Origin: Escherichia coli
GTDB taxonomy: Bacteria > Pseudomonadota > Gammaproteobacteria > Enterobacterales > Enterobacteriaceae
Length of the DNA stretch: 64,000 bases
Strand: one strand, 5' to 3'
Assembly: GCF_003334355.1 (NCBI RefSeq)
Contig: NZ_QOWP01000021.1
The notes under the pieces: model-generated
Told to the model about the DNA's origin: nothing
The model's input: only the letters and a program-made list of their open reading frames with translations
Database searches by the model: none
Shown here: positions 28,275-53,024 of the stretch, one piece after another
Layout of the letters: each line of letters begins with the position of its first letter
Numbering within the stretch: the stretch's first letter is position 1
Made by a program: the position numbers and the translations under genes

Positions 28275-29366
<1,092 letters not shown>

Positions 29367-29587
29367 TTATTGTGATCAAAAGCAACAAATTAGTAACATT
29401 TAACGTAGGGTATTAAGGCAAAGTGAGACAGGAAATGAATAACTAAAGCAACAGGTTAGGGGGAGTTAACATTAGAGAACAGATTATCTGGTCGATAAAA
29501 AACAGTAAATGGCTTCACTGCAAAATGACCGTTAGTAAACTAAACATATTATCTGCCCCGTTTTATCGGGGCAGATATAACATTAAA

Positions 29588-31840
29588 TTATAAATAGAGA
29601 TAGTTCGGCGGTTCTCCTGTTTTCCCTAAAAGAAGAGCGCTACGCCCAGGAATATTGATATTTAGAGTTCCGCCTCTAAGCGTAAATACTTTACCAGGAG
29701 GGATAATTTTTCGGGTATTATTAATAATAATGTTAACGCTATTACTCCCCATGTTTTTGTATATTCCAGGTTGCAATTTGTTAGGCCAGGTACCTTCAAC
29801 TTCTTCGTTTCCTTTATTTATTATAACTAGTCCATCATGAGGAGAGTGATTAATGTTCACAGAATCCCCACGACTAAAGGCCAGAACGTTTTTAGTTGCA
29901 GATACACCCTCAAATGCGCTCCATATTCCTGCTTTATCTATATATAATGCGTGGAATTCATTGTAGAGCTGCTGATAGGTAGAGCAACCTTTATTAAGCT
30001 ACGCCTCACCGCCGACACGCGTGGACCCATCATAATTTTTAATTTCAGTCGTTGATTTTAATACTTGGCCATCCCAGTAAACTAAAGGCCTGCTGAACGG
30101 CAGAGCGGCTATATATGCCATTGCTAATTGTTCATCTTGTTGATGGTTAAATAGAAAGTCATTGAAAAGATTACCATTGTTAGGAAAATCGTGGTTAATG
30201 TTAATCAATATCCGTCTTTCTGATGGGATACTTGAGATTGTGGAACCCGGTTTTGATGCAAGGGTTTGAAGATCTCCACCAAATGAAAAGGCTTTTATCG
30301 TTTTCATGAGCAATGAAAAATCAATGGCGCTTAAATCATCTCTTTCATAAAGCAGTGATGACATTTGTTGTTCATCCAACTGACAAGTTACCAGATATTC
30401 CATGTAATTCATAACGGCTTTTTTATGATATTTTGGGTTAAATAAGTTAGTATTGTGTAACCGCTCATTATAATTTTTAAGCGGTGGGGTTATTGATCTT
30501 TCTATTTGTTCATGTTTTGAGTGTTTTGCCGCATCATAACGTAAACCTCGTACGCCATATTTTCGCATTTCACGAACGTATTGATTTTGCAACATAATAA
30601 CCTGGTCACTTTTGGGTGTTGTTTTAGGCATTCCATTTAAACGCTTTTCTTTTAATGCATGGAGGTTTTCCCATTCATCCTTAGAGATGTTATCTTTACT
30701 TGCTTCGAAGTCTTTTGCAGTGAGATGTATATCTTCTGGATGGATTTGTTTACGTTCTTTTGTTACTGGATCTTTAATGAATGGAATCAAAACCTGACCT
30801 TGCTAATAGCCAGGGATACCACCTTCTATATCTTTACTGATCTTCGCTCGTATATCAGCAAAGGGATAATCCAGGTCATTTTTACCACTACCCCCAATTC
30901 CCATAAAGTTAAAGGTATAATCAGGAATGATATCGATACCAAATTTTTTAGCATCTTTAACCAATGCAATAAAATCCTGCAAATCTCCCATTGGATTATG
31001 GATGGTACAAAGATCTTCGGATTGATAAGCATGAAACCAGTAACCCTTTTCTTCTTCGGGAGTTTCTGGTCCGTCGGCGCGGAAAGTTGTCACTGGAGGG
31101 ATTTGTATATACCCATAATGGCAACGTGCAAATTCAGACATATTTTCTCTGATCTGCTGGTAGGTGGCATTAAAAGCATGAAGAATCGCTTCGCCAGGTT
31201 TTTTGGGGGTGATGATTTCACATTGTGATTTCTGAACAGCAGTAAGAGATTTACGCTCAAGTGTTTGCCGTAGATGTTCTAGATTGATTAATATTTTAAA
31301 TGTTTCTTGCTGTCCGGAAGGTGACGTCACGTTAATATTATATACATCGGCTGCCAGCTCATAGTCAGGAATGTTAATAGCATATGCAACATATTTATCT
31401 TTTGGGGAAGGTTTGTCAGATATAATGTGGGTGAAATTTTCAGCACGACCATACTGATAAACACCGCTGTTATCACCTCTTTCAATCATTGTATCTCGTT
31501 GATAAACCTATGTTTTTCTTTCTCCTATCCTGTCTGGCGCTGTAATGCTACGCTGTGCTGCTTTATTCAACTCTCGGTAAGTTGTATCTGGAGAAAGGGA
31601 AATTTTATAATCGTTTTTTAACAGATCATTAATAACTTTTTCTGCGTGAAAAGTTGATATAATTTCTCTGTCTTTTAATCCTTGAGGGTAAACTCCACAA
31701 GAATTAATAATATTTGTTATACAGTTTAGATATTCTAATGTATTTAATTTGGAATTTAGATCCCCGTCAGTAATGTTCCATGATAACAATGTGGGGTTGT
31801 CGATAGGTAAATTTCTGGGTCCTGGTTTTATAGAAAACAT
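29588..31840 (-). pseudogene. ygaQ: ygaQ-like glycoside hydrolase (alpha-amylase-like) gene interrupted by three in-frame TAG codons (31508-31510, 30803-30805, 29999-30001), no frameshifts
   Basis: Four consecutive minus-strand ORFs share one reading frame; GH13-like GIDIIPDYTFNFMG segment. Confidence 0.7.
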
Positions 31841-32388
31841 AATAAAGTTCCTCTAATGGTAGAGTAATATGATGTATACGGAAACATAAAAATGTTTAAT
31901 TGTTGTGAAAGTAATTGCAAACAGATGTCCTACTTTTATCCAATATTTATATGGAAAAGGATAATGCTTAAATCTGTTTTATTAATTATCGATGTGGTCT
32001 GGAGAGGCAACTGTCAAAAATCGCTCATACGAAACTAATGATTAGCAGAATAAGATCTATGAAAGAATATATTGCTATACGAAGTTTATTTTTATGGAGT
32101 GAAAAGTAACAGATATCATAATGATGCGAAAACTCTTCAGCTAATGTAATAAAGTTATATTATTAGATACAAAGTATCATTGAATCGATGATAACTATAG
32201 ATAGTGCTAATTATTAACATTTGCTTGTTGACTGCGAGTATCGACTTTGCGAATGGAGGCGGTGTCGGGTTTTATGTCGCGTGTAATCACGACCCAAGGT
32301 GAATGGGAACGCATAAAAATCTGTTATTTACATCATATGATCATCATGTTTATTGCGTGGTTTATAAGTATTGTTATTGCACACTCAA

Positions 32389-32464
32389 GGCCCTTTAGCT
32401 CAGTGGTTAGAGCAGGCGACTCATAATCGCTTGGTCGCTGGTTCAAGTCCAGCAAGGGCCACCA
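32389..32464 (+). tRNA. ileY: tRNA-Ile2 (anticodon CAU, lysidine-modified type)
   Basis: ggccctttagctcagtggttagagcaggcgactCATaatcgc...gggccacca; recalled ileX/ileY sequence. Confidence 0.85.
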
Positions 32465-33213
32465 AATCATTATTTACGTATCAGGAAGAGTTAAGGGTAC
32501 AAGGGGTACTCGATGGCGGTCTATATTTCATGACTAACGCCATTTCAAGGAAGAAGTGCGGTGGGTGGTTTCGAATGAGGGCTGGTGTTTTGGTACGTGG
32601 CACGCCACTGCAATGTATTTATCCATCAGTACTCATTCAAAAGTACCTGGAAAAAATGCCTGCTATGCCAAGCGGGCAAATTGCTTACATGTGGAATTAA
32701 GTAATTAACGATAAAGCCAGAGTATTATCATTTATTATACCCCTTCATTTAATCAGGTTAATTACTCAAATCACTGAACTATTCTCTGTTCGCTCACTGA
32801 TGATAAGTGAGTACCACAACCAATGTATGTAGAACAATGCCGTAGAGTAAGGATGAAATGTCTCTGCCACGCCTTAAACATCTACTACTGACCAGAACAC
32901 CCGCCGCAGGCAGATGAGTTTTGTGAGCGTTACAGGAGCGTGGCTATGCTCATTAACCAACGCTATTGAGATATAAATTTCTAACACTTGAAAAACGATT
33001 TTCACTAATAAATTATAACGGTTTTTTTTATCATACAGCGAAATAACCTTTTGTTTATTAAATTTAACATTCCTGTGCTAATTTAATTAAAAGTTCCATG
33101 CGTAGCAAGTGAAGCAGTTAATGTCAGTAATTGTCTCAAATGAGCGTTTTTTATAGTGACAAACAGTAATAACATTAAAAATAGCCATGTAGACATTAAT
33201 TGAGGAATAGACA

Positions 33214-33696
33214 ATGTTAGTTAGTAAAAGCAACGGATTTAACGCTAGCGCAGTTTTGGGTAGTGGAAGTTATAATGAAAATAAATCTTCTAAACACATG
33301 GAGCTACTAGCTCATAGTATTTTAAAATTAATTTGTAAGGAAGCTGCATCAGAGACGTATCGCGGTGCTCTTGAAACTTTACAAAAAATGATGTCTGAAT
33401 GTATATATCAAGAAGGCAACGCCTTTGTCATTATGGGAGCTGGAGAACAATTAAAACGTATTAAATATGAAGTTGGTGAAAATAACTTAAAGGTATTCAA
33501 CGTACACTTTAATAATAATCACGAGTTAGTTAGTTCTGGTGAGCCTGACGTAATATGTTTAAGCAAGCAGGTCTGGGAAAATCTTCTCATTAAACTAAAG
33601 CTGGAAAACAATGAAAATGTGTTTTCTGAAACTAAAAAATTATCGAATAAAAATAATGCCGATCAGTTTTTTGAATGCGCTAAAAGAAATGAATAG
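33214..33696 (+). CDS. Hypothetical protein (AT-rich island gene)
   Basis: 160-aa ORF in AT-rich DNA next to tRNA-Ile; no recognisable motifs. Confidence 0.4.
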   Translation: MLVSKSNGFNASAVLGSGSYNENKSSKHMELLAHSILKLICKEAASETYRGALETLQKMMSECIYQEGNAFVIMGAGEQLKRIKYEVGENNLKVFNVHFNNNHELVSSGEPDVICLSKQVWENLLIKLKLENNENVFSETKKLSNKNNADQFFECAKRNE

Positions 33697-33795
33697 AACC
33701 TTTTCGATAATATAAGAAAAAGTGATTTTCATGTTGGTTTACTTAAGCCAAGTAGTACGCGTAGTGTTATTTTAGAAACGCCGCCAAATGTCTGT

Positions 33796-34587
33796 ATGGA
33801 ATCACGTAATTCATATGAAAACAAAATAGATGAGATTTCATCTTTGTCAGAGTCAAAGGAACACCCCATAGATATTCAAGAAAAAAAAGATGCGTTTGTG
33901 AATGAGTTCAAGGGGGTATTATTTGATAAAAATACAAGGTCTTCAGAGCTTCTGTTTAATTTTTATGAGTGTTGCTATAAGTTTTTACCAAGAGCTCAGC
34001 CTCAAGATAAAATCGATAGCTATAATTCAGCACTGCAAGCTTTTTCCATTTTTTGTTCATCTACGTTGACACATAATAATATAGGCTTTGATTTCAAATT
34101 ATTTCCTGAAGTCAAGCTGTCTGGAGAACATCTTGAAACGGTATTCAAATACAAAAATGGCGATGATGTCCGGGAGATAGCCAAAATTAACATTACTCTC
34201 CAAAAAGAAGAGGGTGGTTTATATAATTTACGTGGATTGGATTTTAAGGGGTGCTTCTTTTCTGGACAGAACTTCAGTAACTATGATATTCAATATGTGA
34301 ACTGGGGAACGTCATTGTTTGATGTTGATACTCCGTGTATTTTTAATGCGCCTGCTTACAACAAGAGTAATGAAAAATCATTAAAACCTGTGAGCGAAAA
34401 CGGTTTAAGTGGAGTATTGACTGATCGTAATAATAAAATAAAACTCATCACGGGCGTGGCACCATTCGATGATATTTTATTTATGGATGATGACTTTGAT
34501 GATAGTTCCTCTGAGGATGATCCCGTTGAGAATAGTCCTGTTGTGACTAGTCCCGTTGTATCAAGTTCTAAAAGCAGTTTTCAATGA
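33796..34587 (+). CDS. Hypothetical protein (AT-rich island gene, acidic Ser/Pro-rich C-terminus)
   Basis: 263-aa ORF in AT-rich DNA. Confidence 0.45.
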   Translation: MESRNSYENKIDEISSLSESKEHPIDIQEKKDAFVNEFKGVLFDKNTRSSELLFNFYECCYKFLPRAQPQDKIDSYNSALQAFSIFCSSTLTHNNIGFDFKLFPEVKLSGEHLETVFKYKNGDDVREIAKINITLQKEEGGLYNLRGLDFKGCFFSGQNFSNYDIQYVNWGTSLFDVDTPCIFNAPAYNKSNEKSLKPVSENGLSGVLTDRNNKIKLITGVAPFDDILFMDDDFDDSSSEDDPVENSPVVTSPVVSSSKSSFQ

Positions 34588-34920
34588 TTAATAAATGGCA
34601 ATTTTTACAAAGAGATAATAACGTAGATTGAAACAATATGTATTATTGATTGAGTAAACGGGATTATTCTTCACACTACATCCATTTTAGTGTCACTACC
34701 AAAGAAAAAGGGGCTACGTTTTCATGTAACCCCTTGATTTATTTGGTGGGCTGGCAGTGACTGAATTGGTGCTGTAATTGGTTGAAATATTTCATCTAAT
34801 GTCTGGTTCAACTTTCCTTAGCTGCCTGAAAGTTTTTTGATCTTACCCAGCAATAACAGCGTTACGGTGCACCACGCCTGACTGAAGAACTGCGTGCTCA
34901 GGGTTACCACTTCAACGTAA

Positions 34921-35160
34921 AACCGTGGCAGGAGGTCCGGACTGAAAAAACTGGTCAGGACATCATCGGCAGGGAACGCACTGCTAGTCTGTAAACTGAA
35001 CCGACTGGGGCGCAGTATGTGGCATCTTGTCGTGCAGTTGGAGGAGCTGTGCGAACGTGGTATTAACTTTCGTGCTCTGGCCCAATCTATATTTGCCCAA
35101 CAATGGGGGGACGAATGCTGTAAAAGTAAAACAATCTGCGATCTCAAAGTTATTGTGTGA
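34921..35160 (+). pseudogene. Fragment of a Pin/Hin-type serine DNA invertase (pinH-like remnant)
   Basis: Frame reads [37 protein letters not shown], matching the serine recombinase catalytic core; no start, truncated both ends. Confidence 0.6.
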
Positions 35161-35489
35161 TTTTTATGTGAGCAGAAGATATTCATCAGAAACGATTATG
35201 TAAATCATTTTATTTTGCCAACGGCCTCATTGTCGAAAGAAAAGAATACGCCCGTATTTCCTGAATGGATTGACTTTTTTATCCAACCACACTTCAGCGC
35301 ACTGCGTTTAAAAAATGCCTCATTCTTATGCGGAATATCATCATTTCATCATGATGTCTTTGATGAGCGGTGAACACAATACACTTGCGCTGTCTCTTCA
35401 GGATGAATCCCCTGGTCTGGTGCCTGTGGGCTGATGTTGCAGCAAAGCTAAGGTCGCTTAAACGCTACTCAGTATTCACTTTTCAGAGG

Positions 35490-38400
35490 ATGAAATTTAT
35501 GAACAGGACCAGTCCCTATTATTGTCGCCGCTCAGTACTTTCCTTATTGATATCTGCCTTGATATATGCCCCGCCCGGGATGGCTGCCTTCACTACTAAT
35601 GTTATTGGTGTGGTAAACGATGAGACTGTAGATGGCAACCAAAAAGTGGATGAACGAGGTACAACAAATAACACTCATATTATCAACCATGGCCAGCAGA
35701 ATGTTCATGGCGGGGTATCTAATGGAAGTCTTATTGAATCTGGTGGATATCAAGATATAGGAAGTCATAACAATTTTGTGGGGCAGGCTAATAATACAAC
35801 CATTAACGGTGGCAGACAGTCAATTCATGACGGGGGTATTTCCACAGGTACGACAATCGAGAGTGGCAATCAGGACGTTTATAAAGGGGGTATCAGCAAT
35901 GGAACGACAATTAAGGGCGGTGCTTCACGCGTAGAGGGAGGGAGTGCGAATGGAATACTCATTGATGGTGGTAGCCAGATAGTAAAAGTTCAAGGGCATG
36001 CTGATGGTACAACGATAAATAAGTCTGGCTCTCAGGACATCACGCAAGGAAGTCTGACAACGAACACAACCATAAATGGTGGTCGACAGTATGTTGAACA
36101 GAGCACAGTAGAAACAACCACCATTAAAAATGGCGGTGAGCAAAGAGTATATGAGAGCCGTGCGCTGGACACGACGATTGAAGGCGGAACTCAGTCTCTG
36201 AATAGTAAGTCAACGGCAAAAAATACGCATATCTATTCTGGTGGCACGCAAATTGTTGATAACACCAGCACCTCGGATGTTATTGAAGTTTATTCTGGTG
36301 GCGTGCTTGATGTTAGTGGTGGTACGGCAACAAATGTTACCCAGCACGATGGTGCAATTTTAAAAACTAACACTAACGGTACGACGGTGAGCGGTACGAA
36401 TAGTGAAGGTGCATTCTCCATCCACAATAAAGTGGCAGACAATGTGTTGCTGAAAAATGGAGGCCATTTAGAAGTATCTCATTCCGCAAACAAGACGATT
36501 ATTAAAGATAAAGGAACAATGTCAGTTTTAACCAATGCTAAAGCTGATGCGACCCGAATAGATAATGGCGGGGTTATGGATGTTGCAGGAAACGCGACAA
36601 ATACCATAATTAATGGTGGCACACAGAATATTAATAATTATGGCATAGCCACAGGCACCAATATCAACAGCGTAACGCAAAATATCAAAAGCGGCGGGAA
36701 AGCTGACACAACAATTATATCCTCCGGGAGCCGGCAGGTTGTTGAGAAAGATGGTACGGCAATTGGCAGCAATATTAGCGCCGGAGGCTCGCTGATTGTC
36801 TATACCGGCGGTATTGCACATGGGGTTAACCAGGAGACGGGCAGTGCTTTAGTTGCCAACACGGGCGCAGGGACTGATATCGAAGGATACAACAAGCTCT
36901 CTCACTTCACTATTACCGGAGGGGAGGCTAATTATGTTGTGCTGGAAAATACCGGCGAACTGACGGTAGTGGCTAAAACCTCGGCGAAAAATACCACCGT
37001 TGATGCTGGCGGTAAACTGATCGTCCAGAAGGAGGCCAAAACAGATACCACCAGACTTAACAATGGCGGCATTCTGGAGGTTCAGGACGGTGGAGAGGCT
37101 AAGCATGTAGAGCAACAATCCGGCGGCGCATTAATTGCTTCCACGACTTCCGGAACACTTATCGAAGGAACCAACAGTTATGGTGATGCTTTCTACATCA
37201 GGAATTCAGAAGCTAAAAATGTAGTGCTGGAAAACGCTGGCTCATTAACAGTCGTCACTGGTTCCCGGGCAGTTGATACGATTATTAATGCCAACGGCAA
37301 AATGGATGTTTATGGAAAAGATGTTGGCACTGTACTTAATAGTTCTGGCACCCAAACAATATATGCCAGTGCCACTTCTGATAAAGCAAATATCAAAGGT
37401 GGCAAGCAAACGGTATATGGTTTAGCCACTGAGGCAAATATCGAAAGTGGTGAACAAATTGTTGATGGTGGGTCAACAGATAAAACACACATCAATGGTG
37501 GCACGCAAACCGTTCAGAATTATGGTAAGGCGATCAATACCGATATCGTCTCTGGCCTACAACAAATTGTGGCAAACGGGACAGCGGAAGATTCCATTAT
37601 TAATGGCGGTTCACAGGTAGTTAATGAGGGCGGTCTGGCTGAAAACTCGGTGCTTAATGACGGCGGCACACTCGATGTGCGGGAGCAAGGCAGCGCAACG
37701 GGGATACAGCAGAGTAGCCAGGGCGCGTTGGTTGCAACCACCAGGGCGACGCGGGTCACAGGGACACGCGCTGATGGCGTCGCGTTCAGCATCGAGCAGG
37801 ATGCGGCGAACAATATCCTGCTGGCAAATGGCGGCGTGTTAACCGTGGAGTCAGACACCACTTCCGCCAAAACACAGGTCAATGCGGGCGGTCGGGAGAT
37901 CGTCAAAACAAAAGCCACTGCGACAGGCACGACGCTCACCGGCGGCGAACAAATCGTCGAGGGGGTGGCGAATGAGACAACAATTAACGACGGCGGAATA
38001 CAAACAGTTTCAGCTAACGGAGAGGCAATAAAAACAAAGATCAATGAAGGCGGTACGCTGACAGTCAACGATAATGGCAAAGCGACAGATATCGTCCAGA
38101 ACAGCGGTGCCGCTCTCCAGACGAGCACGGCTAACGGTATTGAAATCAGCGGTACTCACCAGTACGGTACTTTTTCCATTTCCGGCAATTTAGCGACCAA
38201 TATGTTGCTGGAAAATGGCGGTAATTTATTGGTATTAGCAGGTACCGAAGCTCGCGACTCCACGGTTGGCAAGGGTGGGGCAATGCAAAACCTGGGTCAG
38301 GACTCCGCCACAAAGGTTAACTCTGGCGGGCAATATACCCTTGGGCGGTCAAAAGATGAGTTTCAGGCTCTGGCCCGGGCAGAAGATCTCCAGGTCGCTG

Positions 38401-47171: not shown

Positions 47172-48113
47172 ATGGATGCACTGCATGTCGCGCTTGAAAA
47201 TCTGATTAGAGATGATGGTCAAACACTAAATAGTTATTTTAGTGAAGTTAAAGTTAATTCATTGATTGAAAATACAAATGCAACTTGTCATTTTCATTGC
47301 CTTAATCTTGATGGCAATGGACGTCCTCGGGTAGACGCGTTAATCCAATTCTTGAACGATAAAGTAGTTGATTATGCTATTCCAAGGAAAAAAATCAATG
47401 AGGCAGTGCAATATTTTAATGAAACACAATCAACAGCGAAAATAACAAAATTAGCAAATCAAGCAAAAAGATTATTTACTAGGCTTGCAAATAGTGGCGA
47501 AGGCGGTGAATTTATCCTTTTTTTATTTGCAGAGCAATTCCTTAGATTTCCACAAATTATTTGCAAAATGAGCCTGAAAACGAGTTCTCAAATGCATTAC
47601 CATGGTGCAGATGGAATACATATAGGCGTAGATAAAGATAATAAAAAATTATGTTTATACTGGGGCGAGTCTAAACTCTATTCCAGTCTGAGCAAAGGTA
47701 TTTCTGAGTGTATGGATAGTATAGCTCCATTACTTCAAAGTTCTATGGGAATAGAAGGCGCTGAGACACGTGATATGCAGTTGCTGGAGTCGCACTTAAA
47801 TGTTGATGATATAGAACTAGAACAAGCGTTGAAAAGATTCTTAGATCCTGATAGCCCGGATTTTAATAAATTGGAATACAGAGGAATATGCTTAGTTGGG
47901 TTTGATCTTAAAGATTATCCACAAGGGCCCAGTTCAATTGATATCAGTGAACTAGTTGCTTTGATTAATACTAAAGTCGGGAAATGGTCAACTAGTGTGC
48001 AAGGTGGTATAGTTAATAAAAAACTTGATCGCTTTGCTATGCATGTTTTTATTCTTCCTTTTCCTTCAGTAAAAGCATTTAGGGCTAGTTTAATTAAAGC
48101 ATTGGAGAGTTGA
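47172..48113 (+). CDS. Cargo gene 1: putative PD-(D/E)xK-like nuclease-fold protein, HamA/DUF1837-like candidate (313 aa)
   Basis: AT-rich ORF; E(110-113)...D147 (GADG)...E166-S-K168 (GESK, 47667-47675) arrangement; no P-loop; coupled to downstream helicase. Confidence 0.45.
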   Translation: MDALHVALENLIRDDGQTLNSYFSEVKVNSLIENTNATCHFHCLNLDGNGRPRVDALIQFLNDKVVDYAIPRKKINEAVQYFNETQSTAKITKLANQAKRLFTRLANSGEGGEFILFLFAEQFLRFPQIICKMSLKTSSQMHYHGADGIHIGVDKDNKKLCLYWGESKLYSSLSKGISECMDSIAPLLQSSMGIEGAETRDMQLLESHLNVDDIELEQALKRFLDPDSPDFNKLEYRGICLVGFDLKDYPQGPSSIDISELVALINTKVGKWSTSVQGGIVNKKLDRFAMHVFILPFPSVKAFRASLIKALES

Positions 48114-48114
48114 A

Positions 48115-50697
48115 ATGTCGTTGCGAGATTTATCTGGGTGGTTGATTAAGAATCAAGGATTCTTAAGAAAATATCAGGCATTAGTCGCTAACTCGATAAA
48201 AGATCAATTTCCAGAGTTAAAATCAGATGTAATCCCACAGATTAGTTCTGAGGATGTCGGCTATCTTTTAACATGTGCTAGTTCTTTGGCTTTCTCAAGT
48301 GATGAGAAATGCCAAGATGCAGCCTTAAGGATTGCACAGTATTGCTTATTGAATGAAAAAAGTGAAGCAAGAAAAGATAGTGCTGCATTAATTCTTGATT
48401 CATTATCTAATAATCCAGCAATACAACTTGCTGAAAATAGGGGGTATCTTAACCCTGATTTCGAAGAAAGATTACCCTTAAAGGCTCAGTTAGAACTAAC
48501 TAAAAGAAAAATTCTATATACAATTGAAATAGATGCTGATAAGCATATTTATGCTAATAGGTTTCAATCAGAGTTTTGGGATGCGGTACAAGAAAACTCA
48601 TGGGTTAGTGTCTCTGCTCCCACCTCTGTAGGAAAATCATTTATCCTGGAATCTTGGGTGGAGCAGTTTGTAAAAAGAAATAAGAATTGCTTAGTTATTT
48701 ATATCGTACCAACAAGGGCATTGATTTCAGAAGTATATTCTGAGTTGCAAAAACGTTTGGATCCTAATTTAACAAATATAGTTAATATTCAGACACTACC
48801 ATTGAGTAATGTATACCAGAGCGAAAAATCTAATGTCTTCATATTTACACAGGAAAGATTAAATTTATTCTACAATCATTTCTCACAAATTCCAAAGATA
48901 GACGTCTTAGTTGTTGATGAAGCACACAAGATCGGTGATGGTGGAAGAGGTGTTATTCTTCAACATGTAATTGAACTGACTTGTCTAAATAACCCTGATT
49001 CAAAAGTTATCTTTGCAAGTCCTTTCACCTTAAATCCTGAAATATTGCTCAGTGATGCTCCAATATTAAAAAACAAAAGAACTATAAAAAGTGACTATGT
49101 TACAGTTAATCAAAATTTAATATGGGTAGAACAAAAACCACGCAAGACCAAAGATTGGTTGATGTATTATTTTGCAAACGGTGAAAAACGCGAGTTAGGA
49201 AACTTTTCTTTAGAAAATGCACCATCTCCTGAAAGTAAAAGATTGCCTTTTGTAGCTCTTTGTTTAGGTAAGGGGGCTTCTGGTAACGTAGTTTACGTAA
49301 ATGGAGCCGCTGAAGCAGAATCTACTTCCAAGCTAATATCTGCAAGTATAGAAAATGAGACTGAGGATGAAGAAATTTTAGCTCTCGTTGAGCTTAGTGA
49401 GACAATTATACATAAAAATTTCGCATTAAATCGCACTCTAAAAAAGAGAGTCGCTTTTCATTATGGCAACATGCCTTTAATAATAAAGGGCGAGATTGAA
49501 CGATTGTTTAGTAAAGGTAAGATTGATTTTTTAATTTGTACCTCAACTTTAGTTGAGGGCGTAAACATGGCTTGTAAAAATATTTTTATAAGAGGCCCTA
49601 AAAAGGGTAATTCAACCCCGATGCGAGAAGAGGATTTTTGGAATCTTGCTGGCAGAGCTGGTCGTTGGGGAAAAGAATTCCAAGGTAATGTCATCTGCAT
49701 CGATAGCGACAATGAAAAAATTTGGAATGGAGAGCCTCCAAAAACCAAAAAAAATATATTTATAACTCGCGCCACGGATGCTATTTCCCATGACATGGAT
49801 AAGTTGGTTTCCTATATTTTTTCAGAGCATCATTTTGGTATGTCTGAGCGGAATCCTAATCTCCAGAGTCTATTTAGTTATTTATGTTCATCATTTTATT
49901 TTTATAATGGCTTGGATAATAATCCTTACATGGAAAAGTACAATATAAAAAATATCGATGTTTTAAATGAAGCAATATTTGATGTTTTTGATTCTTTAAC
50001 TTTTCCACACGAATTGGTTGTGCGGCATCCTGGTATAAGCCCGCTTTTAATGCAAAACCTTTGGGATAGATTTTCGCGGGATACAAACAAACCTGTAGAG
50101 AGATTACTGCTTTCTGAACCTGGTAGTAATGATGCGTTAGATTCATATGTATCCGCATTCTCTAGAATTAGTGATACTCTGAGTAAGAAGCTAGGTTATA
50201 ATTCAAAAGGAGCTTACGTACAGGCCTTGCTAGTTTCCAAGTGGATGAAAGGTTATCCCCTAGCAAGATTGATCTCGGATAGAATAAGATATAACAAAAA
50301 GAAAAATATTGTTTTCAAAGAAGCGACTTTAATACGAGGGGTTATGAAGGATGTTGAAGAGATCGCTCGCTATCAAGCTCCAAGGCTTTTAGGATGTTAT
50401 AATGATTTATTAAAAAGCTTTTATCTTTCGATAGATCGCACAGACTTAGCAAAAGATGTTGAAGATATCGGTGTTTATTTAGAACTAGGTGTAAGTTTAA
50501 AAACTCAGATTTCACTAATAGGGCTTGGCTTTTCAAGAACTGCTGCTGTAATGATTTCAGAGCTTATTCCTAATGATAGTTTAGATGAGGAAGAATGCAT
50601 TAATTGGATTAAGGACAATAAAGTTGACATGGAAGAACTGCCACAATTAGTTCAAAACGAAATACATAATATATTTCGTAACTTTTGGGTACAATAG
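48115..50697 (+). CDS. Cargo gene 2: SF2 DEAH-box helicase with about 340-aa C-terminal extension, HamB-like candidate (860 aa)
   Basis: Walker A APTSVGKS (GKS 48631-48639), DEAH (48916-48927), TSTLVEGVN, motif VI AGRAGR (49648-49665); ATG 1 nt after upstream stop. Confidence 0.6.
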   Translation: MSLRDLSGWLIKNQGFLRKYQALVANSIKDQFPELKSDVIPQISSEDVGYLLTCASSLAFSSDEKCQDAALRIAQYCLLNEKSEARKDSAALILDSLSNNPAIQLAENRGYLNPDFEERLPLKAQLELTKRKILYTIEIDADKHIYANRFQSEFWDAVQENSWVSVSAPTSVGKSFILESWVEQFVKRNKNCLVIYIVPTRALISEVYSELQKRLDPNLTNIVNIQTLPLSNVYQSEKSNVFIFTQERLNLFYNHFSQIPKIDVLVVDEAHKIGDGGRGVILQHVIELTCLNNPDSKVIFASPFTLNPEILLSDAPILKNKRTIKSDYVTVNQNLIWVEQKPRKTKDWLMYYFANGEKRELGNFSLENAPSPESKRLPFVALCLGKGASGNVVYVNGAAEAESTSKLISASIENETEDEEILALVELSETIIHKNFALNRTLKKRVAFHYGNMPLIIKGEIERLFSKGKIDFLICTSTLVEGVNMACKNIFIRGPKKGNSTPMREEDFWNLAGRAGRWGKEFQGNVICIDSDNEKIWNGEPPKTKKNIFITRATDAISHDMDKLVSYIFSEHHFGMSERNPNLQSLFSYLCSSFYFYNGLDNNPYMEKYNIKNIDVLNEAIFDVFDSLTFPHELVVRHPGISPLLMQNLWDRFSRDTNKPVERLLLSEPGSNDALDSYVSAFSRISDTLSKKLGYNSKGAYVQALLVSKWMKGYPLARLISDRIRYNKKKNIVFKEATLIRGVMKDVEEIARYQAPRLLGCYNDLLKSFYLSIDRTDLAKDVEDIGVYLELGVSLKTQISLIGLGFSRTAAVMISELIPNDSLDEEECINWIKDNKVDMEELPQLVQNEIHNIFRNFWVQ

Positions 50698-50789
50698 TCT
50701 TATTTAGACGATTTTTTAAACAATCAATAGAGAAGTTTTTGAATTTTATCATTCTTCCAGTAACAAAAACTTCTCTTTTATAACACCGC

Positions 50790-51248
50790 TCAGGCTATTC
50801 CAGAATAGGCTTTGCTTACTTCACTATGCCTTGTGCCGCAATGCCTCAAAATAACAAGGCCATGTTGCAGTAACGCCTCACTACGTTCAGGTTCAAACCA
50901 TTTCCCGTTAAATTTTCCTCCGTGAAAAAGATTGTTTCTTACACGGCGGATTAACAAAAAAAGAAATTTTGCTAAATCTTTTTCTTGTGGTAAAGAATCA
51001 TCCCAAACTAAAGAGTCATCTTCTATGATTTGTTTTTTGGGTGGGTGTTCTTTAAAGTAGGTGATAGCAGCAATTAGCTCTGGATCAGTTGTGTTATTTA
51101 TGATTTCAGAAACTTGCTTTGCATACTCATCCCAGTTCGCTTTAGCATCTTTTATTTTATGATGAAGTCCACATGCCTTAAGGCAATATTCGTAACGTGA
51201 AAACTCTCTAAAGAATTCATAACATAAATTATCTAGATTATTCTCCAT
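50790..51248 (-). CDS. Hypothetical protein (152 aa), AT-rich cargo ORF between helicase and integrase
   Basis: Clean ORF convergent with the helicase operon; no recognisable motifs. Confidence 0.45.
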   Translation of the reverse strand: MENNLDNLCYEFFREFSRYEYCLKACGLHHKIKDAKANWDEYAKQVSEIINNTTDPELIAAITYFKEHPPKKQIIEDDSLVWDDSLPQEKDLAKFLFLLIRRVRNNLFHGGKFNGKWFEPERSEALLQHGLVILRHCGTRHSEVSKAYSGIA

Positions 51249-51277
51249 GAACTATATCTCCATGTATAACAAGTTAA

Positions 51278-52477
51278 CTAATATTGATTGCGCTCGTACA
51301 CTTTTTGGCCCCACCAATTCATAAGTCCTATTCGTTGCTCAAGGTAAGTTGAACGATTATATGCTCTGCGCACTTCATTTTTATCACTATGTGCAAGAGC
51401 AGCCTCAATTACATCTGCATTAAAACCCGCTTCATTTAATGCGGTGCTGGCAATTGAACGCAATCCATGAGCAACCAATCTACCACCAAATCCAATCCTT
51501 TTTAAAGCAGCATTTGCCGTCTGGCTATTCATTGGTTGCTTTGGGTCATTCCGACTCGGGAAAACATGTTCACGATGGGCACTGATTAGCTTCATCACAT
51601 CAAGAATCTCTAATGCCTGAGGAGATAGAGGGACTATGTGTTCCCGCTTAGCCTTCATTCGTTCAGCTGGGATAGTCCAGAGCTTTGCATCGAGATCGAG
51701 CTCAGCCCACCTAGCACCGGAAGCCTCAGAAGGACGAACTAGAGTCAGGAGTTGCCACTCAATGAGGCAGCGAGTCGGAACAGACAAATTTGACATGACG
51801 AGAGAACGCATCAGCATAGGCAATTCTTCTGGGCGCAACGTAGGCATATTTTGTTTTTTTGGCTTCTCAAAGGCCATTCCAATGCCTGATGCTGGATTGG
51901 CATCAATAAGACCAGTATTTACGGCATAAATCATTATCTCGTTAACACGCTGCACCAACCGGCGCACCGTCTCCAGCGCCCCACGAGCTTTGATCGGTTC
52001 AAGGGCTTCAACCAGTGTTCGGGCTTTGATTTGCTGGACAGGGATCTCCCCGATGGTGGGGAATACGTCTTTTTCCAGTGAACGCCATATATCTTTAGCG
52101 TAATCATGGGTAACGCTTTTGCTTTTGAGCTGGAACCAGTTAGCGGCGACCGTCGAAAAAATACTGTCCAGAGCGATTTGCTGCTGTTCCTCTGCAACTT
52201 CAGCTTGAATTTGCGGGTCGATTCCGTTGGCTAATAGGGCAAGGTAATCTGCTCTTAACCCTCGGGCATCAGCAAGAGAAAGGGCAGGAAAAGCACCAAG
52301 TCCCATCATAGTCCGCTGTTTTGTTGCTGGGCGTTGATAGCGAAAGCGCCAGAGTTTCTTGCCGCTAGTTTTCACTATCAGGAAAAGCCCATCGCCATCA
52401 TGCAGCGTTAGATCCTTCTCTAACGCTTTCGCGCGCAGAACTTCGGTGTTGGTCAGGGGGCGTGTTGTCCGTGCCAC
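51278..52477 (-). CDS. int: P4-type tyrosine integrase
   Basis: 399-aa ORF next to tmRNA 3' end; C-terminal catalytic region with HGLRSIAST and RAYNRSTY (His/Arg/Tyr). Confidence 0.85.
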   Translation of the reverse strand: MARTTRPLTNTEVLRAKALEKDLTLHDGDGLFLIVKTSGKKLWRFRYQRPATKQRTMMGLGAFPALSLADARGLRADYLALLANGIDPQIQAEVAEEQQQIALDSIFSTVAANWFQLKSKSVTHDYAKDIWRSLEKDVFPTIGEIPVQQIKARTLVEALEPIKARGALETVRRLVQRVNEIMIYAVNTGLIDANPASGIGMAFEKPKKQNMPTLRPEELPMLMRSLVMSNLSVPTRCLIEWQLLTLVRPSEASGARWAELDLDAKLWTIPAERMKAKREHIVPLSPQALEILDVMKLISAHREHVFPSRNDPKQPMNSQTANAALKRIGFGGRLVAHGLRSIASTALNEAGFNADVIEAALAHSDKNEVRRAYNRSTYLEQRIGLMNWWGQKVYERNQY

Positions 52478-52661: not shown

Positions 52662-53024
52662 TGGTGGAGCTGGCGGGAGTTGAACCCGCGTCCGAAATTC
52701 CTACATCCTCGGTACTACATGCTTAGTCAGTCTTTACATTCGCTTGCCAGCTGCGGACGGACACGCCACTAACAAACTAGCCTGATTAAGTTTTAACGCT
52801 TCAACCCCAGGCAGGGCTTCCACGCGATCTCTTTTGGGTTTGACCTCTCTTGATCCCCGTCCTAAGAGCGGAGGCTAGGGAGAGAGGGCTCTAAGCAGGT
52901 TATTAAGCTGCTAAAGCGTAGTTTTCGTCGTTTGCGACTATTTTTTGCGGCTTTTTACGAGGCCAACCGCCCCTCGGCATGCACCTTGGGTTTCGCAAAT
53001 CCCGTCGAATCCAGAATCAGCCCC
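52662..53024 (-). ncRNA. ssrA: tmRNA (SsrA), 363 nt
   Basis: Reverse complement begins GGGGCTGATTCTGGATTCGACGGG and ends ...GGGTTCAACTCCCGCCAGCTCCACCA; tag ORF region present. Confidence 0.95.

Follow-up and report, generated by a model that had tools for sequence, protein, structure and literature searches.

A small solo HEPN-like gene beside Hachiman in the cargo slot of a P4-like satellite of Escherichia coli

The window analysed in this study is a 64,000-nucleotide stretch of Escherichia coli DNA (contig NZ_QOWP01000021.1) that carries a P4-like satellite, in whose cargo slot an open reading frame (ORF) for 152 amino acids, named here ORF152, lies between a helicase operon and an integrase gene. 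What does this small gene do there? An earlier note, made from the DNA letters alone, regarded it as an orphan ORF with no recognizable motif and offered three options: a third component of the defence module, an independent small defence or abortive-infection gene, or a regulator. The second option is the best supported of the three. On balance, the evidence leans towards ORF152 being an independent solo HEPN ribonuclease (RNase), that is, an autonomous defence or abortive-infection cargo gene which does not depend on the adjacent Hachiman genes, hamA and hamB. It appears to be the best-supported reading because of the solo architecture of the protein, the defence context of its relatives, the spread of the family beyond Hachiman, the precedent of the HEPN systems HepS and ApeA, and the model of a pseudo-dimer.

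The gene and its HEPN motifs

The features of ORF152 and its immediate flanks are as follows.

50790..51248, minus strand: ORF152, single-domain (solo) HEPN-like protein of 152 amino acids (ORF listing, ATG start, 459 nucleotides (nt))
51257..51261, minus strand: GGAGA, Shine-Dalgarno-like, 8 nt 5' of the ORF152 ATG (read from the sequence)
51177..51191, minus strand: codons E20-Y-C-L-K24, Ex3[KR] motif, HEPN helix 1
50922..50939, minus strand: codons R104-N-N-L-F-H109 (RNNLFH), Rx4H HEPN catalytic motif, then GGKFN
50729..50776, no strand: 13-bp perfect inverted repeat, AGAGAAGTTTTTG / CAAAAACTTCTCT, with a 22-nt loop, between the convergent stops of hamB and ORF152

ORF152 is confirmed as a genuine gene. 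It is, as the earlier note described it, a clean minus-strand ORF convergent with the helicase operon; the spacer between its stop codon and that of hamB, which ends at 50697, is 92 nt, and its start lies 29 nt from the stop codon of the integrase gene, int, on the same minus strand. The inverted repeat within the spacer folds at -21.7 and -18.5 kcal/mol on the two strands (z = -3.0 and -3.6 versus shuffled controls) and is possibly a bidirectional terminator. A consensus scan called neither a promoter nor a terminator at ORF152, the inverted repeat being passed over because its loop exceeds the rule of that scan.

The guanine-plus-cytosine (GC) content and its value at third codon positions (GC3) are 0.362 and 0.28 in ORF152, 0.351 and 0.24 in hamA, and 0.346 and 0.27 in hamB, whereas they are 0.484 and 0.44 in the integrase gene, and the GC of the satellite backbone is 0.48-0.50; the jump is located at the int stop codon. 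Since ORF152 is close to hamA and hamB and unlike int and the backbone, the AT-richness that it was said to have in common with the helicase operon is real. ORF152 is under purifying selection: in comparison with a 91%-identical copy from a Raoultella/Enterobacter-type cassette, the ratio of nonsynonymous to synonymous substitution rates (dN/dS) is 0.17 and dS is 0.29, while the same comparison gives a dS of 0.24 for hamA and 0.22 for hamB. The idea of a chance ORF in AT-rich DNA, in favour of which only the lack of Pfam and NCBIfam matches could be cited, is already refuted by these and other conservation data and retains practically no probability, considering 2029 clusters of homologues at 50% identity, the low dN/dS, a ribosome-binding site, a confident predicted fold, and the outcome of shuffling the local 1-kb segment 2000 times by mononucleotides, in which an ORF of at least 152 amino acids arose in a single case.

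Catalytic HEPN domains have been defined by an Rx4-6H signature, with a polar residue after the arginine, and by Ex3[KR] in the first helix (Anantharaman et al. 2013, PMC3710099). Both signatures are present in ORF152, and the statement that it has no motif must be withdrawn, RNNLFH being an Rx4H motif. Conservation was followed in two alignments, A2 with 116 sequences and A4 with 95 more diverse representatives. Invariant in A2 are R104, N105, F108, H109, G110, K112, F113, and N114, together with E20 and K24 of the first helix; in A4, R104 and E20 are still invariant, and N105 to H109 as well as K24 are conserved at 90% or more.

The structure prediction that had been suggested for this ORF gave a confident HEPN-like model. 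Built from the 116 sequences, the AlphaFold2 model (pLDDT 92.5, pTM 0.88) is helical, with an all-alpha, up-and-down bundle similar to those of solved HEPN domains and a conserved beta-hairpin insert at residues 72-83. The Rx4H motif, with the polar N105 after R104, closes helix 92-109 at its C-terminal end, and E20 and K24 lie within helix 2-25. A search of the AlphaFold database (AFDB) with Foldseek returned 81 significant matches, nearly all of 150-170 amino acids and named Apea-like, RiboL-PSP, or pEK499_p136 HEPN. The same search of the PDB gave no significant match, and profile searches of PDB sequences gave only CRISPR-associated HEPN-like chains at sub-threshold expectation values (E) of 0.15-0.24, aligned on RN..HGG. 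When two copies were joined by a linker in tandem, the AlphaFold2 pseudo-dimer reached a pTM of 0.82, and this model is compatible with the homodimer that is usual for HEPN proteins.

The regulator proposed in the earlier note finds no backing in these results, as the protein lacks a DNA-binding fold and its residues for HEPN catalysis show little or no variation. A broader form of the idea would make the protein non-catalytic, either an RNA- or ligand-binding regulator comparable to the MtlR-type HEPN proteins, or a counter-defence factor of the satellite or its helper phage. Some HEPN domains are indeed non-catalytic (PMC3710099), satellites and phages do carry counter-defences, and a 29%-identical homologue is found in the structural tail module of E. 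coli phages. Nevertheless, the conserved catalytic R, N, and H residues and Ex3K are typical of active HEPN RNases, the protein has no DNA-binding domain, and most loci of the family are chromosomal defence islands or operons, so a role of this kind seems very improbable.

The gene is not an orphan either, since its homologues form 696 clusters at 90% identity, and a profile search of 1.84 billion representatives recovered 2029 clusters at 50% identity with E<=1e-3, of which 1528 had E<=1e-10. Among the 150 best representatives almost all proteins are 145-180 amino acids long, and an extra domain is not typical; one rare fusion, P0130 (349 amino acids), combines an Mrr_cat restriction-endonuclease domain (residues 61-171, E 5.6e-20) with this HEPN domain (residues 202-348). 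The family is found in Proteobacteria, Bacteroidota, Acidobacteriota, Planctomycetota, Deinococcota, and Chloroflexota. Labels of relatives in UniRef and AFDB include 'Apea-like HEPN domain-containing protein'. In Pfam, ORF152 has no match even at E<=10, and nothing above threshold was obtained with the 116 and 95 members of the two alignments; NCBIfam has no match for ORF152. PADLOC v2.0.0 gave only two chance-level Cas8c matches for ORF152 (E 0.009 and 0.023) and nothing beyond such matches for ten diverse homologues. In PHROGs the only match is phrog_19013, the function of which is not known.

HEPN RNases in defence islands are already well known; this family is large, uncharacterized, and outside Pfam, NCBIfam, and PADLOC. 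As far as profile comparisons tell, it is a new, unmodelled HEPN subfamily rather than part of the ApeA family proper, because no member matches the corresponding hidden Markov model above threshold and ORF152 lacks the N-terminal domain of ApeA. As none of Pfam, NCBIfam, and PADLOC v2.0.0 detects this family of about 2,000 clusters at 50% identity, it would be missed in the present censuses of defence systems, and in P4 hotspots a gene of this family would count as 'unknown' cargo.

Genomic company of the family and the tie to Hachiman

A strong PADLOC match was found in the adjacent gene or genes at 19 of the 31 genome loci examined, a majority obtained with hand-picked neighbours and no background control. 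At least 18 types of system are represented: HmaC with an AbiJ-like gene, short prokaryotic Argonaute (pAgo) with an APAZ-nuclease partner, type II and type III restriction-modification (R-M), Orf5/HEC-06, AbiEi/AbiEii, PDC-S06, PDC-S31, PDC-S32, PD-Lambda-3_B, PD-Lambda-4_A, Gabija, SIR2-HerA, DRT UG10, Drt8, a ThsA-like SIR2 protein, a SoFic-like gene, and IetAS. The family gene is very often packed against its neighbour on the same strand, with gaps of -1 nt to pAgo, -10 nt to SIR2-HerA, -4 nt to the AbiJ-like gene, and 24 nt to type II R-M. In a type III R-M locus (L064) it lies between Mod and Res, at gaps of 2 and 18 nt, and in another locus (L038) it follows a type II R-M system. The GC of the family gene is usually lower than that of the surrounding DNA, and this, together with the same-strand packing against defence genes, is the pattern classically shown by mobile defence genes. 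An all-versus-all blastp comparison of the neighbours in 54 loci revealed no conserved partner family; only sporadic recombinases recur.

The packing against other systems also suggests a different role, namely that of a plug-in or back-up effector coupled to the adjoining system, here HamAB. Once that first system is set off or blocked, the protein would step in as a second-line RNase, much as PrrC is kept in check by the EcoprrI R-M system. This is the main rival to the autonomous reading. Overlap or near-abutment with neighbouring defence genes on the same strand occurs in many loci, ORF152 has diverged together with hamAB and is constantly in its company in E. coli, and such a role has been proposed by Anantharaman et al. 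for at least 16 HEPN clades inside R-M operons (PMC3710099). In addition, there is the documented precedent of promiscuous add-on effector pairs (trypsin-MBL and nuclease-protease) that Hachiman, Argonaute, and AVAST have acquired repeatedly. Against these points stand the at least 18 unrelated types of partner, which have no protein in common that could offer them all the same surface for interaction, and the lack of any conserved neighbour family; the orientation of ORF152, convergent with hamAB and co-oriented with int; the copies of the family on tiny plasmids and in loci without a recognizable defence neighbour; and the lack in ORF152 of the large ABC ATPase domain through which control of the PrrC type works. 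Overall, coupling to the adjoining system is considered possible but unlikely. A wider version, in which the family is a universal plug-in effector, holds that a HEPN RNase of 150 amino acids has been captured again and again as a shared back-up arm by unrelated immune systems, its trigger being not a system-specific partner but some general sign that the first line of defence has failed or that the host is being taken over. This version is rather doubtful; if it were true, few known modular immune effectors would be as small and as promiscuous. Placement beside or inside at least 18 systems provides a test case for independent immunity layers versus wired-in back-up effectors.

The neighbours that bear most directly on this matter in the window are the two Hachiman genes and the integrase gene.

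47172..48113, plus strand: hamA, Hachiman nuclease, DUF1837 (PADLOC HamA1 PDLC00163, E 1.7e-135)
48115..50697, plus strand: hamB, Hachiman helicase, 860 amino acids (PADLOC HamB1 PDLC00186, E = 0, 1135 bits)
51278..52477, minus strand: int, P4-type tyrosine integrase, directly 5' of ORF152 at the edge of the cargo slot (NCBIfam NF007246, E 1.7e-176)

According to the best-scoring models, HamA1 and HamB1, the operon that was recognized in the earlier note by its helicase is identified as a type I Hachiman system. Hachiman has been presented as a complex of two proteins, HamA and HamB (PMC12278908). Within one cassette lineage the tie between ORF152 and this system is close: hamAB is also present, at 99.8% identity, in all 20 complete E. 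coli genomes that carry ORF152, and the arrangement int-ORF-hamB-hamA is found both in IMG/VR copies with 100% protein identity to ORF152 and in the 91%-identical copies of Raoultella/Enterobacter-type satellites.

Beyond that lineage the tie is lost. HamAB was seen only beside copies that are at least 91% identical; it was found in none of 50 genome loci, in none of the viral loci at 66% identity or less, and beside none of the enterobacterial homologues at 49-67% identity. Ahead of the 66% homologue are an ogr gene and a gene for 249 amino acids; the 63% homologue, at the end of a prophage, comes after genes for a large serine recombinase and a DUF2971 protein; and the 64% homologues are preceded by a resolvase gene and a DUF2188 gene. 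Homologues at 61% and about 50% identity are likewise in non-Hachiman contexts. The 53% homologues come after IetA-IetS, one of them again in a P4-type slot at ssrA but in the orientation opposite to int, and a 49% E. coli homologue lies between icd and a prophage integrase. ORF152 is not part of the hamAB operon, being convergent with hamB, and PADLOC has no match for it among the known Hachiman accessory models. The suggestion that ORF152 is a third component of Hachiman is not supported as a property of the family, as HamAB accompanies only the copies of at least 91% identity and never a homologue of 67% or less.

Two observations concern the cassette itself. In three E. coli records, H36-H38 (NZ_CP081706.1, NZ_CP081701.1, and NZ_CP081791.1), an IS5-like ISKpn26 is inserted inside the Hachiman genes and the copy of ORF152 is intact. 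In one IMG/VR copy of the cassette (L083, 6001-9132), single-base indels frameshift both ORF152 and hamB, either by draft sequencing error or by early decay.

A further possibility is that ORF152 has no part in phage defence and serves as an addiction or stabilization toxin, a HEPN toxin with an unrecognized antidote (a small RNA, a tiny ORF, or a host factor) which would stabilize the satellite, plasmid, or island. Copies of the family are carried by small plasmids: 49% and 38% homologues (L077, 970-1443; L078, 684-1151) are found on Citrobacter/Enterobacter (4.9-6.1 kb) and Klebsiella (5.5 kb) plasmids, where the other genes are only those for replication, mobilization, ccdAB, or resolvase and no known defence system is present. 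However, the Citrobacter plasmid already has ccdAB, and the neighbour of 157 amino acids on it proved to be unrelated to the family. No MNT or other conserved gene is adjacent to the family genes, and the 29 nt upstream and 92 nt downstream of ORF152 leave no room for a protein antitoxin. A toxin of this type is therefore regarded as improbable.

Several loci of the family deserve separate mention. In Bacteroidota (L058, 7926-9266; L062, 7929-9257), a small HEPN gene lies 3 nt 5' of a PD-Lambda-3_B homologue, at the place expected for PD-Lambda-3_A. The identification of the family with PD-Lambda-3_A was considered and rejected, as no PADLOC match speaks for it; PD-Lambda-3_A is not described in the main text of the Vassallo paper. 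In Pantoea and Phytobacter (L002/L003, 5724-7699; L021, 6725-8696), a conserved mini-cassette of resolvase, DUF2188 gene, HEPN gene, and an ORF of 51 amino acids sits behind varied cargo, which may be ABC-3C-like genes, a gene pair of unknown function, or a DRT UG10 reverse transcriptase. The 29%-identical phage homologue is a protein of 170 amino acids in the tail/baseplate module of Escherichia phage vB_EcoM-689R2 (L020, 4926-5438), and it occurs in four E. coli phages.

Proposed mode of action and known HEPN systems

The proposed action of ORF152 can be potentially described as follows. The gene would have entered the slot between psu and int together with Hachiman, on one AT-rich cassette, but without depending on it. 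Its expression may be low and constitutive, possibly from transcripts that run on from int, and would give a minimal stand-alone HEPN protein that would form a homo-oligomer and act as a metal-independent endoribonuclease. As a dimer or tetramer the protein would be catalytically latent until a cue derived from the phage activates it; it may then cut tRNA or other RNA, by which translation would be arrested and the infection aborted. Of all this, the analysis shows the predicted fold, the motifs, the architecture of the family, and its genomic context, whereas the RNase activity, the latency, the trigger, the abortive outcome, and the independence from HamAB in this particular cassette are inferred.

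Two single-gene systems offer precedents. HepS ('HEPN Solo') of the Salmonella prophage Gifsy-1 is a partner-less HEPN protein, a latent oligomer that becomes an anticodon nuclease when activated by a phage protein (PMC13043305). ORF152 resembles it in being a small single HEPN protein with Rx4H near residue 100 (R100/H105 in HepS, R104/H109 in ORF152), and in being an accessory gene of a mobile element with no partner gene nearby; the HepS sequence itself was not located in the Gifsy-1 region of the LT2 record, where no gene has the R100/H105 motif. ApeA is a single-gene HEPN anti-phage system, an anticodon nuclease activated by deoxydinucleotides, and represents a small-molecule variant of the HepS type of activation. 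The likeness of the family to ApeA lies in HEPN_Apea (PF18739), the most frequent sub-threshold Pfam match of its members: none reaches E<=0.001 among the 116 and the 95, and three in each set reach E<=0.1, the best at 5.9e-2 and 8.6e-3. In contrast to ORF152, whose 152 amino acids are entirely HEPN-like, ApeA has an N-terminal domain of about 300 amino acids and builds large doughnut-shaped oligomers with a ligand pocket, and PADLOC gives no ApeA match for ORF152.

Other known systems are more distant. PrrC, RloC, and the HEPN genes embedded in R-M loci (Anantharaman et al. 2013) likewise lie inside or at the end of defence operons, with a logic of 'multi-pronged defence', but the ORF152 family has no ABC-ATPase regulatory domain and its partners extend far beyond R-M; moreover, ORF152 in the window lies outside the operon of its neighbour. 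HepT/MntA, a type VII toxin-antitoxin system, differs in that none of 54 loci of the family has an adjacent MNT nucleotidyltransferase, and the identity is 7-11%. Extra genes clustered with hamAB are known, as ORF152 is here, and include HamC of type II Hachiman, PezAT, and abiJ; in Streptococcus, type III-B Hachiman has PezAT or abiJ adjoining it, and the HEPN protein AbiJ is sometimes clustered with hamAB (PMC13064477). ORF152 is unlike these accessories in that it has no PADLOC match to HamC, AbiJ, or Pez, and its association with Hachiman is confined to one cassette lineage.

Certain points weigh against an autonomous role. Inside its own cassette, a functional coupling of ORF152 with HamAB is possible, and in that lineage ORF152 and hamAB have diverged together as a unit with similar dS. 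The neighbour survey was based on the nearest large ORFs, picked by hand without a formal background control, and the tight operonic embedding (gaps of -10 to +25 nt) suits an accessory role and hitch-hiking equally. The consensus scan found no promoter for ORF152, a solo RNase would have to avoid being toxic to its own cell, and no paper on 'Apea-like HEPN' or on the RefSeq accession of ORF152 turned up in the literature. Even so, the autonomous HEPN RNase is the reading towards which the evidence leans, and if it were confirmed, a very compact single-gene candidate of 152 amino acids would be added to the anti-phage systems.

The satellite and its cargo slot

The element around ORF152 is a P4-like satellite integrated at ssrA. 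Besides the genes listed above, it and its attachment region contain the following features.

52662..53024: ssrA (transfer-messenger RNA), with smpB just past it
45.1-46.7 kb: Sid-like, Psu, and Ogr/Delta genes of the satellite
43690..43777, minus strand: P4-type C4 antisense (immunity) RNA
43846..43923, minus strand: IsrK small RNA

The presence of the C4 antisense RNA and IsrK confirms the P4-like character of the element. A search for an attachment (att) repeat with the 3' end of ssrA found a single copy only. The interval between psu and int is a known defence hotspot in P4-like satellites (PMC9122126). In a related satellite at ssrA, the integrase gene is 85% identical in DNA, the homology ends about 30 nt inside the 3' end of int, near position 51309 of the window, and the slot is filled by an ABC-three-component system. 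Therefore, ORF152 is variable cargo and not part of the backbone, which bears out its placement in the cargo slot by the earlier note.

The HamAB of the window was also compared with the structurally studied Hachiman of ECOR31, an identification that was rejected for want of a close relative in the PDB. At E<=1e-10 nothing in the PDB is related to HamA, and only one chain matches HamB at E<=1e-30, namely 9wh1_B (E 3.9e-58), which is distant and belongs to a helicase domain.

In E. coli strain 190 (L001, 5529-8971), ssrA does not come next to the satellite integrase; its place is taken by a second integrase and genes of a lambdoid or e14-type prophage, which points to elements in tandem or to insertion at another site. 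Elsewhere in the window, a second strongly AT-rich block (29000-36000, GC 0.32-0.41) contains a tRNA-Met at 32389..32464 and is probably another horizontally acquired island.
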